7,865 bases of DNA from a virus. Taxonomy: Duplodnaviria; Heunggongvirae; Uroviricota; Caudoviricetes. The notes under the pieces are model-generated. The model made no database searches, was not told where the DNA came from, and was given only the letters and a program-made list of their open reading frames with translations. The position numbers were made by a program, and so were the translations under genes. Below, piece after piece: positions 4,573-7,517 of this stretch (position 1 is the first letter of the stretch; each line of letters opens with the position of its first letter). The stretch lies in IMG/VR virus record IMGVR_UViG_2690316115_000018, one strand, 5' to 3'.

Positions 4573-5307
4573 ATGGAGACTGTTTTTGACGCACTGAAAG
4601 CGATGGGAAAAGCCACGTCGGTAGAGCTGGCTGCGCGACTTGATATCAGTCGTGAAGAAGTACTGAACGAGCTGTGGGAACTGAAAAAGGCTGGCTTCGT
4701 TGATAAAAGCGTATACACCTGGCGTGTGGCTGATAACAACGTTCAGCAGGAACAGCCAGCGCCAGAAGAAACCACCACGGCAACAGAAGCGAAAATCTCA
4801 GAGTGCGATTTAACCGCGACGATTGAACAACGCGGACCACAAACGGCGGATGAACTGGCTACGCTGTTCGGTACAACATCCCGCAAAGTTGCTTCAACGC
4901 TGGCAATGGCAATCAGCAAAGGTCGTCTGATTCGCGTAAACCAGAACGGTAAAATTCGTTACTGCATACCAGGTGATAATTTACCAGCAGAGCCGAAAGT
5001 TGAATCGGTAGCGGAAACCGATGGTAAAGCCTTTCCTCAGCCAGCCGGTGTTGCGTTACCGGTACAGAAAGATGCAACACAGGAAGATATTAAAACAGAA
5101 ACTGTGGCGGACATTGTGCAGTCGCTGCCATCGTTTACTGCAACGCGAGAAGATGATTTGATTTTGCCATCGCTGCATATGGCAAATCGCGAACTGCGTA
5201 GGGCGAAGAATCATGTCCAGAAGTGGGAGCGAGTCTGCGCCGCGCTGCGGGAGCTGAACAAGCACCGGGATATGGTTGCCGGGATTTGTCGGAAGTCCGG
5301 GCAATGA
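4573..5307 (+). CDS. hypothetical phage protein, winged-helix-like N-terminus (possibly DUF1627-type)
   Basis: 244 aa; GGGAGG RBS 6 nt upstream of ATG; N-terminal 60 aa and a second segment ([31 protein letters not shown]) look like wHTH units; family name is recollection only. Confidence 0.65.
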
Positions 5308-5468: not shown

Positions 5469-5915
5469 CGCGATAACGGTCAAAAATTATGGCGCTGACA
5501 CTTTTGTGCCACTGGAGATGACTGTACCTAAGTTCAGGGGAGAAGAACACGTCCGGTGGGATGGTCGGGCCAGATTTAAAGGGCAGGTCATGGCTCCAGC
5601 CTGTACGCTGGCAATGGAGGCTGCCTGGCGGGAAATTGATATGGGAACCACGCCACTCAGGGATTTACTGCCGGTCCAGAGAATAAATTCCTGTTACGGT
5701 TACACCACTGTGATCTTGCAAGTGCAGGAAAGTAGGTCTACACGGTAACGCGAGTGCGTGTAACTTTTGATGTCATTCCCGTAGAAACACCGGACAAATT
5801 TTCGCTGACAGGTCATGCAGAAGGTATAAATCTGCAGATTATGGACAATTACGGATATCCGGCAAGAGCCGGAAAAAGCATGCCGCCTCTAATTCTCAGT
5901 GGAAGATGGACTTGA
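5437..5915 (+). pseudogene. possible frameshifted gene remnant (open frames 5437-5748 and 5736-5915)
   Basis: GC-normal region whose open reading switches frame twice (frame of 5304, then frame of 5437, then frame of 5769); no good RBS for the 103-aa ORF (GTG start); no family recognised. Confidence 0.25.
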
Positions 5916-5974
5916 TTATACTCATTGCATTGTCAGAAATAGTTATCCATTAAAGGCTGGCTATTCCAAACAGG

Positions 5975-6002
5975 ATGTTGATTACAAAAATGTAATCAAC
6001 AT
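5975..6002. promoter_or_regulatory. 28-bp palindrome ATGTTGATTACA-aaaa-TGTAATCAACAT upstream of the binding-protein gene
   Basis: perfect 12-bp arms read directly; AT-rich region 165 bp upstream of the ATG; a TATAAT hexamer lies at 6029-6034. Confidence 0.4.
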
Positions 6003-6166
6003 GTAAGGTTTATACTCTTCAATATGCGTATAATTTTCCTTATTTTGTTGACTTTAAATAACAAGCTATGCACGAGGTAAAGTCGGATAAGTTTATCTGG
6101 ATGTAATATATATTATTTGTAGTGTTTATAACTTTATTTCATGATAACCAATAAAAGGAGTTTTTT

Positions 6167-6925
6167 ATGAGGAGCATAATGGCAGGTTTTTTAATATTCC
6201 TGTCTTCTGCTGCTTATGCTGATATCAATCTGTATGGTCCTGGTGGCCCGCATACAGCCTTGCTTGATGCAGCCAAACTTTATGCCGAAAAAACAGGTAT
6301 TATAGTGAACGTTCATTACGGCCCACAGAACAAATGGAATGAAGATGCCAAAAAAAATGCAGATATCTTGTTTGGCGCATCAGAACAATCTGCTCTGGCT
6401 ATCATTCGGGACCATAAAGACAGCTTCAGTGAAAAAGATATTCAGCCTCTTTATCTGCGAAAAAGTATTTTACTGGTAAAGAAAGGTAATCCTAAAAATA
6501 TCCGGAGTATTGACGACCTGACCAGACCTGGGATTGGCGTAATTGTTAATGATGGTGGTGGTACCAGTAATACATCAGGCACTGGCGTCTGGGAAGATAT
6601 TGCCGGACGTAAAGGGAATATAGAAACTGTCGCCGCAATCCGAAAAAATATTATTTTATATGCGCCCAATAGCGGAACTGCACGTAAGGCTCTTGAGAAT
6701 CAGCCTGGAGCAGATGTCTGGATAACCTGGGCTGACTGGGCAGCCAGTAATCCAGAAATTGGTGATGTCGTGGAAATAGCGCCAGACTACGTGATATGGC
6801 GTGATATGAACATTACAGTACGTCAGGATGCAAATGATGAAACCCGTCGATTTGCAGAATGGCTACAAACCGATGAAGCGGCGCCTGCATTCAAAAAATA
6901 TGGCTGGACCAGGAAAGGCACTTGA
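6167..6925 (+). CDS. secreted orphan periplasmic solute-binding protein, ModA-like (PBP type 2) fold; prophage moron
   Basis: 252 aa; AAGGAG 6 nt upstream of ATG; Sec signal peptide MRSIMAGFLIFLSSAAYA with AYA-D cleavage motif, no lipobox Cys; C-terminal FAEWLQTDEAAPAFKKYGWTRKG parallels my recollection of ModA (FYDYLKGPQAAEIFKRYGFTIK); low-GC gene with AT-rich upstream region; no permease or ATPase genes nearby. Confidence 0.75.
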   Translation: MRSIMAGFLIFLSSAAYADINLYGPGGPHTALLDAAKLYAEKTGIIVNVHYGPQNKWNEDAKKNADILFGASEQSALAIIRDHKDSFSEKDIQPLYLRKSILLVKKGNPKNIRSIDDLTRPGIGVIVNDGGGTSNTSGTGVWEDIAGRKGNIETVAAIRKNIILYAPNSGTARKALENQPGADVWITWADWAASNPEIGDVVEIAPDYVIWRDMNITVRQDANDETRRFAEWLQTDEAAPAFKKYGWTRKGT

Positions 6926-6928
6926 CAT

Positions 6929-6957
6929 CCTCGTCCTTCAGGACGTGGATTCTTTTT
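6929..6957 (+). terminator. putative rho-independent terminator after the binding-protein gene
   Basis: hairpin CCTCGTCC-ttca-GGACGTGG (one mismatch) followed by ATTCTTTTT, 4 nt after the TGA stop. Confidence 0.45.
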
Positions 6958-7044
6958 CCGGATGCCGCGCCAGCGGCATGTAGGGGCAGCTCACAAAACG
7001 GAAAAAATTGTACGCTAAGCCTCGCCAGGTGAACTGAATTCATT

Positions 7045-7068
7045 CCGATATGGGAATTCCCATATCGG
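7045..7068. promoter_or_regulatory. perfect 24-bp palindrome CCGATATGGGAATTCCCATATCGG upstream of the hok promoter
   Basis: reverse complement identical to itself; ends 12 bp upstream of the putative hok -35; function unknown. Confidence 0.4.
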
Positions 7069-7110: not shown

Positions 7111-7260
7111 TGCGGGTGCTTGAGGCTATCTGCCTCGGGCATGAACACCAACGGCAGATAGATAAAAGCCCCACCCGACTATAAATCGAAGTGAGGCCCC
7201 TATATGCTCGTCACATATAGATTGCCTCTTACGGACCGAAAGGTCAAGGAGAAGCAGGCT
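7111..7260 (+). promoter_or_regulatory. hok mRNA 5' leader with tac-like hairpin and 5'/3' fold-back element
   Basis: hairpin GAGGC-tatct-GCCTC (7122-7136); alternative pairing CTATCTGCC (7125-7133) with GGCAGATAG (7155-7163); 5' end TGCGGGTGCTTGAG (7111-7124) is complementary to 3' CTCAACGCACCCGCA (7467-7481). Confidence 0.5.
7155..7215 (-). ncRNA. putative Sok-like antisense RNA (approximate bounds)
   Basis: by analogy to the sokC/mokC arrangement; minus-strand -35 TTGACC (rc of plus 7242-7247) overlaps the hok SD region, but the -10 at 17-nt spacing (CAATCT) is weak, and no clear terminator was found; existence not demonstrated. Confidence 0.3.
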
Positions 7261-7416
7261 ATGAAGCAGCAAAAGGCGATGTTAATCGCCCTGATCGTCA
7301 TCTGTTTAACCGTCATAGTGACGGCACTGGTAACGAGGAAAGACCTCTGCGAGGTACGAATCCGAACCGGCCAGACGGAGGTCGCTGTCTTCACAGCTTA
7401 CGAACCTGAGGAGTAA
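7204..7416 (+). CDS. Mok-like reading frame (in-frame N-terminal extension of Hok, 70 aa)
   Basis: ATG 7204 in frame with hok; extension MLVTYRLPLTDRKVKEKQA resembles my recollection of K-12 MokC (MLNTCRVPLTDRKVKEKRA). Confidence 0.5.
   Translation: MLVTYRLPLTDRKVKEKQAMKQQKAMLIALIVICLTVIVTALVTRKDLCEVRIRTGQTEVAVFTAYEPEE
7261..7416 (+). CDS. hokD: Hok-family type I toxin, HokD(RelF)-like, 51 aa membrane peptide
   Basis: MKQQKAMLIALIVICLTVIVTALVTRKDLCEVRIRTGQTEVAVFTAYEPEE matches my recollection of E. coli HokD and is close to HokC/Gef; AAGGAG 9 nt upstream; single transmembrane helix. Confidence 0.9.
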   Translation: MKQQKAMLIALIVICLTVIVTALVTRKDLCEVRIRTGQTEVAVFTAYEPEE

Positions 7417-7485
7417 GAGACCAGGCGGGGGAGAAATCCCTCGCCACCTCTGATGTGTCAGGCATCCTCAACGCACCCGCACTTA

Positions 7486-7517
7486 ACCCGCTTCGGCGGG
7501 TTTTTGTTTTTATTTTC
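7486..7517 (+). terminator. rho-independent terminator of hok mRNA
   Basis: hairpin ACCCGC-ttcg-GCGGGT followed by TTTTTGTTTTTATTTT. Confidence 0.75.

Follow-up and report, generated by a model that had tools for sequence, protein, structure and literature searches.

What is the role of a perfect 28-bp palindrome that lies upstream of an adhesin gene in an EHEC prophage? The window (the whole stretch of viral DNA analysed, 7,865 nucleotides) corresponds to the early region of PPompW, a lambdoid EHEC prophage, in which dicB, dicA/dicC, replication genes and a DUF1627 gene are followed by paa and hokD. The gene downstream of the palindrome, called a binding-protein gene in a preliminary description of this DNA, was identified as paa/adfO. 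This gene encodes an AcfC-family adhesin with a solute-binding fold, and its position in the lambdoid prophage is between the replication genes and hok/sok. The adhesin is a widely distributed adherence factor. The 221 bp located 5′ of paa have been found in 604 of 5426 complete E. coli genomes (~11%), almost always once per genome, and carriers of the paa cassette include O157, O26, O111 and O103 EHEC as well as animal ETEC plasmids. The features of the locus are collected in Table 1.

The palindrome (ATGTTGATTACA-aaaa-TGTAATCAACAT) was detected by sequence reading and with a repeat finder. Its arms, ATGTTGATTACA (5975-5986) and TGTAATCAACAT (5991-6002), are 100% complementary and are separated by a 4-nt AAAA spacer, which reproduces the coordinates and the 12-bp arms reported in the preliminary description. 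The palindrome is real: when the 7865-bp window was shuffled with its dinucleotides preserved, only 2 of 300 trials produced perfect arms of at least 12 bp (loop of at most 10), and for the surrounding AT-rich 321 bp the count was 4 of 2000. The preliminary description had also placed it, correctly, in the promoter region of a moron, which is self-contained, with its own −10 hexamer and terminators, and had noted the consensus TATAAT, which is present and is invariant in 11 of 11 diverged copies. The setting upstream of paa is AT-rich (33% GC). The second short palindrome noted nearer the gene does exist (TAATATATATTA, 6104-6115), but it is not conserved in other lineages, one of which reads TAATATCTATTG.

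Table 1. Features of the paa upstream region, the paa cassette and its left junction (positions of the window)
Feature	Position	Strand	Remarks
Decayed fimbrial-subunit gene fragment	5473..5965	+	85.8% identical to intact plasmid fimbrial gene
Junction between truncated fimbrial gene and left end of paa cassette	5958..5966	.	Homology break
28-bp palindrome	5975..6002	.	12-bp arms and AAAA spacer
Conserved core ATTACAAAAATGTAATCAA	5981..5999	+	Longest near-invariant run 5′ of paa
Half-site 1, TTACA (inverted TGTAA)	5982..5986	-	In 10/11 Escherichia lineages, Providencia (L013) and the Morganellaceae-like contig (L223); TTGCA in E. albertii
Half-site 2, TGTAA	5991..5995	+	Invariant in 13/13 sequences
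Half-site 3, TGTAA	6002..6006	+	GTAA invariant; first base T in 10/13, C in 3/13
Conserved block GTAAGGTTTAT	6003..6013	+	Covers the expected −35 position
Consensus −10 TATAAT of predicted paa promoter	6029..6034	+	Invariant in 11/11
Second palindrome TAATATATATTA	6104..6115	.	Present, not conserved in other lineages
Ribosome-binding region ATAAAAGGA	6151..6159	+	Invariant
paa/adfO	6167..6925	+	AcfC-family adhesin, PF13531
Terminator-like hairpin CGTCCTTCAGGACG followed by T run	6932..6957	+	Terminator scan
GC-rich hairpin ATGCCGCGCCAGCGGCAT	6962..6979	+	Last block common with plasmid cassettes; right boundary ~6990

The palindrome is located 10-15 bp inside the left boundary of a paa cassette of ~1 kb (~5960 to ~6990). 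The cassette consists of an upstream region of ~200 bp, paa, a terminator-like hairpin with a T run and a GC-rich hairpin, and its GC content is 33-41% compared with ~50% in the flanks. Plasmid-borne paa-like genes of E. coli, E. albertii, E. marmotae and Shigella show 72-81% DNA identity with the window over ~5960-~6990. The cassette resembles other phage morons in having its own conserved promoter region, two terminator-like hairpins and a low GC content. It differs from them in that it also occurs on Escherichia virulence plasmids, and a related cassette is chromosomal in Morganellaceae-like bacteria.

On its left side, the Escherichia plasmid cassette adjoins at least five kinds of sequence, which are unrelated to one another left of ~5960. 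The left-hand neighbour is a truncated fimbrial pseudogene in this window, whereas other copies carry a Tn3-family transposase fragment, the 3′ flank of an autotransporter gene or a DUF305/beta-propeller gene pair; in a copy beside IS21, homology begins exactly at CATTACA. All of the independent left junctions fall within ~35 bp left of the palindrome core and none falls inside it. They form a natural 5′-deletion series in which the DNA from the core rightwards has been kept in every surviving copy.

The fimbrial gene fragment contains frameshifts and stops, lacks its last ~12 codons and lies outside the paa cassette, together with which it came into this prophage. The corresponding RefSeq pseudogene extends to a TAA at 6004-6006 and so runs over the palindrome. 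Its 3′ end is an annotation artefact, a read-through of the junction into the paa promoter element, because similarity to the intact genes ends at ~5965, ~12 codons before their stop. This RefSeq “fimbrial protein” pseudogene (5473-6006) represents part of a minor pilin gene of the plasmid type and is truncated at both ends; its relatives are the WP_024008812-type genes (85.8% identical), and sfpH is more distant.

The preliminary description had named a mobile-element terminal repeat as the competing identity of the palindrome. A transposon end, or a recombination site of the Xer/integrase type with an 11-6-11 core, could have moved the paa cassette. Several observations fit such a site: it lies 10-15 bp from the left boundary of the cassette, an 11-6-11 reading of the palindrome is possible, several of the plasmid copies are flanked by IS and Tn3 fragments, and a tyrosine integrase gene is located ~250 bp upstream of the element in Providencia. 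However, the element occurs at a median of one place per genome and is never dispersed (604 genomes), and neither an inverted copy of the left end (near 6925-7000, at the right end of the cassette) nor flanking direct repeats were found. For these reasons, the cassette is not transposon-like and the palindrome is not a terminal repeat. The left junctions, moreover, differ by up to ~30 bp, lying 0-35 bp left of the core and never in the spacer, which does not agree with a recombination core. A scan of viral contigs for ATTACAAAAATGTAAT returned 120 matches, of which 20 represent the same EHEC module; the rest, outside the EHEC prophage, are unrelated chance matches, many of them inside coding sequence. 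A mobile-element origin is thus largely refuted and is given very little probability.

The degree of conservation within Escherichia was determined in an alignment of 11 distinct diverged upstream regions (72-81% identical; 207 columns, from the left boundary to the start codon), in which 48% of the columns are invariant. Strict invariance extends furthest in CAAAAATGTAATCAA (5985-5999, 15 columns; p=0.0017 by column permutation); if near-invariant columns are counted, ATTACAAAAATGTAATCAA, with 19, is the longest run anywhere upstream of paa. The best-conserved 20-bp window covers 5980-5999, with a mean pairwise identity of 0.95. The core is followed by three variable bases (6000-6002), the invariant sequence GTAAGGT (6003-6009) and, later, the invariant TATAAT.

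The conserved run does not coincide with the palindrome. The outer six bases of the left arm (5975-5980) vary freely (ATGTTG, CTGTTG, TTGTTG, CTGTTA, CTGTGC, TTGTAC, CTGGGT and others), and the right arm shows no compensatory substitutions. All 12 arm pairs match in the window, against 10/12 in the two nearest plasmid lineages and 6-8/12 in the remaining ones with a homologous left flank. Only the inner 6+4+6 bp of the dyad are kept, and the right arm is better conserved than the left. The perfect 28-mer is therefore a derived state, specific to the EHEC prophage lineage. The unit that is conserved is a 16-bp palindrome (ATTACA-AAAA-TGTAAT) together with the asymmetric sequence on its right.

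These data also bear on a role of the palindrome in RNA, namely as a hairpin at which read-through phage early transcripts would be terminated or processed upstream of the gene. A hairpin is predicted at −13.8 kcal/mol (z = −3.5). The stem is AT-rich, however, and in most lineages it is only 6 bp long; it is not followed by a U tract, it was not called by the terminator scan, and it has no Rfam match. An RNA-level function is accordingly regarded as highly improbable.

The element extends beyond Escherichia. Two distant paa homologues (67-68% protein identity), one from Providencia alcalifaciens (L013) and the other from a Morganellaceae-like contig (L223), keep it in upstream regions and flanks that are otherwise unalignable with the window. 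The element reads CTTACAAAAATGTAAT-TATTC-TGTAATATT in Providencia and GTTACAAAACTGTAAT-TGTTT-TGTAAGGTT in the contig, compared with ATTACAAAAATGTAAT-CAACA-TGTAAGGTT in the window, and the motif retained across the genera is TTACAAAA(A/C)TGTAAT-N5-TGTAA. Common to all three is TTACA-N4-TGTAAT-N5-TGTAA, a unit in which one TGTAA half-site is inverted and two are direct. The distance from the core to a −10-like hexamer is nearly constant as well (TATAAT after 32 nt in Escherichia, TATACT after 33 nt in Providencia and TACACT after 33 nt in L223). This retention of sequence and spacing amid unalignable DNA is the strongest evidence here that the element may be functional.

The paa homologue of L223 (2501-3265 of the contig) forms a chromosomal islet between queF and ppnN. 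This arrangement suggests a chromosomal insertion carrying the same promoter element, because queF and ppnN (ygdH) are neighbours in E. coli K-12. The element was absent from the other paa homologues of Enterobacterales that were compared (Salmonella, Yersinia, Raoultella, Citrobacter, Edwardsiella and the E. albertii chromosome), which have at least two other promoter types. One of these is common to the E. albertii chromosome, Salmonella and Yersinia; the other, which carries TTTTCGTGATAAC, occurs in Citrobacter, Edwardsiella and Salmonella.

Altogether, at least three unrelated upstream regions are found before AcfC/Paa-family genes in Enterobacterales. Class B is represented by L008, L216 and L218, and class C by L009, L010, L014, L220 and L224. 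In Citrobacter, Edwardsiella, Salmonella and one metagenomic contig, the class C motif TTTTCGTGATAAC precedes the start codon by ~75 bp. In Salmonella L220, a gene for a LuxR/GerE-type regulator lies upstream in divergent orientation.

The preliminary description had interpreted the palindrome as an operator for a dimeric regulator. That it contains the most conserved non-coding stretch of the cassette favours a regulatory site bound by a protein, but the perfect 28-bp dyad is not the conserved unit, and the cross-genus unit is asymmetric, with its one inverted and two direct half-sites. This asymmetry would suit tandem winged-helix proteins such as TcpP or WalR no less than a simple symmetric dimer. 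A dimeric helix-turn-helix regulator could nevertheless occupy half-sites 1 and 2 (ATTACA-AAAA-TGTAAT, with the arms lengthened to 12 bp here), centred at ~−52.5, and repress or activate paa. The site resembles classical symmetric operators (CRP, FNR, Fur, LexA, phage repressors) in its dyad symmetry, its promoter-proximal position and its size of 16-28 bp. The dyad is perfect and statistically unusual in this window, hardly any variation affects the inner 6+4+6 palindrome in 13 sequences, and the stepwise rise of arm pairing towards the lineage of the window (6-8/12, 10/12, 12/12) could reflect selection. Unlike in the classical operators, the symmetry is not conserved beyond 6-bp arms, and the site lacks a consensus match. 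Outer arm pairs are neither conserved nor subject to compensatory change, and the CAA of the right arm and the GTAAGG of the third half-site are conserved without symmetric partners. None of the known palindromic consensuses screened (CRP, FNR, Fur, Zur, LexA, EvgA, GacA/UvrY and TyrR) fits, and no regulator gene travels with the cassette. A symmetric operator is therefore judged unlikely, although it keeps appreciable weight.

The 28-mer may also be functionless as such, its symmetry having arisen over an ordinary promoter through template-switch correction of a quasi-palindrome or by chance near a recombination junction. In agreement with this, the outer six pairs are confined to one lineage and adjoin the junction, the outgroups lack the extended symmetry, and the constrained right arm could have been the template for the variable left arm. 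This explanation covers only positions 5975-5980, however, and not the cross-genus core and third half-site, and it leaves unexplained why every junction spares the core. It is regarded as quite unlikely.

The arrangement of the half-sites relative to the predicted promoter would suit a different kind of site. A TTGACA-like hexamer is absent 16-18 bp 5′ of TATAAT, and no canonical −35/−10 pair was called there by the promoter scan; the absence of a −35 is typical of activator-dependent promoters. If the transcription start is at ~6041, as predicted from TATAAT, the direct repeat would occupy ~−50 to −35 and the centre of the dyad would lie at ~−52.5. Half-sites 2 and 3 constitute a direct repeat, TGTAA-N6-TGTAA (5991-6006), with 11-bp phasing, which occurs once in the window against 0.01 expected.

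The direct-repeat pattern was derived from the sequence first, and the match in the literature was obtained afterwards by literal text search. Among 20 consensus strings screened over 5955-6045, TGTAA-N6-TGTAA was the sole perfect match (10/10 at 5991-6006; 0 of 1000 shuffles as good); the result is that of a screen, not a proof. Matches to the strings for CRP, FNR, Fur, Zur, ModE, LexA, IHF, ArcA, CpxR, PhoP, PhoB, PmrA, KdpE, RstA, OmpR, EvgA, GacA/UvrY, TyrR and ToxR were no better than those of shuffles. CRP (6/10), FNR, Fur (12/19) and ModE (8/10), which the preliminary description had put forward as candidates, thus found no backing in this screen. Its remark on the spacing of an FNR site was correct: TTGAT (5978-5982) and ATCAA (5995-5999) are 12 bp apart, and FNR needs 4 bp. 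The strings for E. coli winged-helix regulators scored 7/10 (CpxR), 9/12 (KdpE), 8/12 (RstA) and 9/12 (PhoP), none above shuffles. In O157, Fur was reported to be without effect on the expression of paa (z2053) as measured by qRT-PCR (PMC4382993).

An architectural site has also been considered, at which IHF or another nucleoid protein bound to AATCAAcatgTAA (5994-6006) would bend the AT-rich promoter; the palindrome would then consist of two opposed IHF-like cores. The sequence at 5994-6006 matches WATCAANNNNTTR at 8 of 9 positions, and an A-tract is located just upstream. All 11 Escherichia copies have AATCAA and TAAGG, and three of the four bases at consensus N positions vary. A match of this quality was, however, obtained in 230 of 1000 shuffles, the TTR triplet reads TAA, and Providencia and L223 lack ATCAA yet have the TGTAA repeats. 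Architectural binding is consequently considered improbable.

TGTAA-N6-TGTAA is the published motif of two regulators, TcpP of V. cholerae (toxT promoter) and the response regulator WalR (PMC4829181, PMC9178039, PMC3472324, PMC11358694). According to a cryo-EM study from 2026, TcpP binds the toxT promoter at −52 to −35 as a tandem pair of protomers that touch RNA polymerase (PMC12802830). The paa element is identical to the TcpP site in pentamer and spacing, and its predicted position is nearly the same, overlapping the −35 region or just 5′ of it, in an AT-rich promoter acquired horizontally. The regulated gene here is homologous to acfC. In V. cholerae, acfC is located on the same pathogenicity island as tcpPH and toxT. 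The resemblance to a TcpP box in front of an acfC-family gene, as read from sequence, is unexpected. The paa site differs from the TcpP site of toxT in having an extra inverted half-site, which makes the palindrome, and in that no ToxR-type site is evident upstream. The 260 bp upstream of V. cholerae acfC contain no such TGTAA box.

The element also resembles the repeats bound by the OmpR-PhoB family (hexamer-N5-hexamer; WalR TGTWAH-N5-TGTWAH, PhoP, KdpE) in its direct repeat with 11-bp phasing and in adjoining a −35-less promoter, an arrangement that is usual for activators touching RNA polymerase there. The half-site of WalR is the same pentamer (PMC3472324). WalR, however, is a Firmicute protein, the consensuses screened for E. 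coli members of the family match the paa site only partially, and the third, inverted half-site of the paa element is unusual for this class.

On the basis of conservation, position and motif, the palindrome is tentatively interpreted as the local form of a conserved candidate transcription-factor site at the upstream end of the paa promoter, namely a tandem winged-helix activator site with one additional inverted half-site. This interpretation is preferred here, at a likelihood that is somewhat short of even. The functional unit would be TTACA-AAAA-TGTAAT-N5-TGTAAG (5982-6007), with one inverted and two direct TGTAA half-sites. Two protomers of a winged-helix protein of the OmpR/PhoB/ToxR superfamily may bind it in tandem, as TcpP does at toxT, and would recruit RNA polymerase to an activator-dependent promoter that has no recognisable −35. 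The promoter is probably silenced by H-NS, and counter-silencing is plausible because of its AT-rich, horizontally acquired setting. The inverted upstream half-site could accommodate an extra protomer or a second regulator. The outer six symmetric pairs are a late acquisition of the EHEC prophage lineage, owed either to selection for a stronger symmetric contact or to palindrome-correcting template switching. Two observations stand against tandem binding: half-site 3 is CGTAA in 3 of 13 sequences, and conservation of the inverted half-site equals that of the direct ones, which purely tandem binding does not explain.

Several sources were examined for the protein that would bind the tandem site. 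Control by the prophage's own repressor was rejected; a similar half-site was not found elsewhere in the window (up to 2 mismatches), in the immunity region or in the rest of the 44-kb prophage. The genes found beside the cassette copies encode assorted AraC/GyrI-like proteins, a DJ-1/AraC protein, a YncE-like beta-propeller, DUF305 and an OspG-like kinase, and none of the regulator genes beside the copies is of the winged-helix type or consistent across copies. Likewise, neither the surroundings of the cassette copies nor the prophage encode a winged-helix (Trans_reg_C) regulator. TcpP and WalR are not known from E. coli, nor TcpP/TcpH from Escherichia or Providencia. The factor would be a host chromosomal protein, since none is encoded in the cassette or prophage. 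The site may act like a TcpP box, but it is not classed as one because Escherichia has no known TcpP and no winged-helix gene lies beside the cassettes or in the prophage. No description of the paa promoter, of the exact core sequence or of a paa regulator was found in the searchable literature.

A more far-reaching version of the tandem-site interpretation, which we regard as doubtful, is that paa/adfO of EHEC, the plasmids and the Morganellaceae relatives is switched on by a ToxR/TcpP-like or OmpR-family winged-helix sensor through the TcpP-identical box. AcfC-family adhesins would then have carried a TcpP-type input from chromosome to plasmid to prophage, linking the moron to the sensing of host envelope or gut signals.

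In itself, the paa element seems to be another conserved candidate factor-binding site in a moron promoter and is of a familiar kind. The analysis narrows the cis-element to ~26 bp, with three half-sites, a natural deletion series and a concrete candidate class of regulator. If the factor is a winged-helix protein that senses host signals, paa would add to the prophage morons that are connected to host sensory circuits; should no protein bind the site, the element would be an ordinary conserved promoter feature.

Several other features were observed around paa. The DUF1627 (YdaW-like) protein encoded just 5′ of the region (4573-5307) shows weak N-terminal matches to winged-helix/HTH families (HTH_20, TrmB and HTH_Crp_2; E ~1e-5 to 1e-4, below the cut-offs). 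Its gene is a common Rac/lambdoid gene that occurs elsewhere without linkage to the paa cassette. Directly after paa, the sok antitoxin RNA of the hokD/ckf locus was recognised by Rfam (103.9 bits, E=2e-23), and a weak isrK-like match (24.9 bits) was below the gathering score; the two matches were placed at 7114-7263 and 7425-7506. Type III effector-like genes, which encode an OspG-like kinase and NleG, adjoin plasmid paa cassettes (L090, 3292-3945; L003, 1195-1842), and the PPompW prophage itself encodes espO, nleG and espM.

Another perfect palindrome, of 24 bp and without a spacer (CCGATATGGGAA|TTCCCATATCGG), is located at 7045-7068, ~120 bp past the paa stop and ~45 bp ahead of the sok/hok locus. 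Its chance probability is as low as that of the palindrome at 5975-6002, and it lies outside the DNA common to the plasmid paa cassettes, which ends at ~6990. The paa upstream region also contains a direct repeat, TGTAAGGTTTATA (6002-6014) and TGTAGTGTTTATA (6118-6130), whose copies are 85% identical and 116 bp apart; the second copy lies ~40 bp 5′ of the paa start codon.
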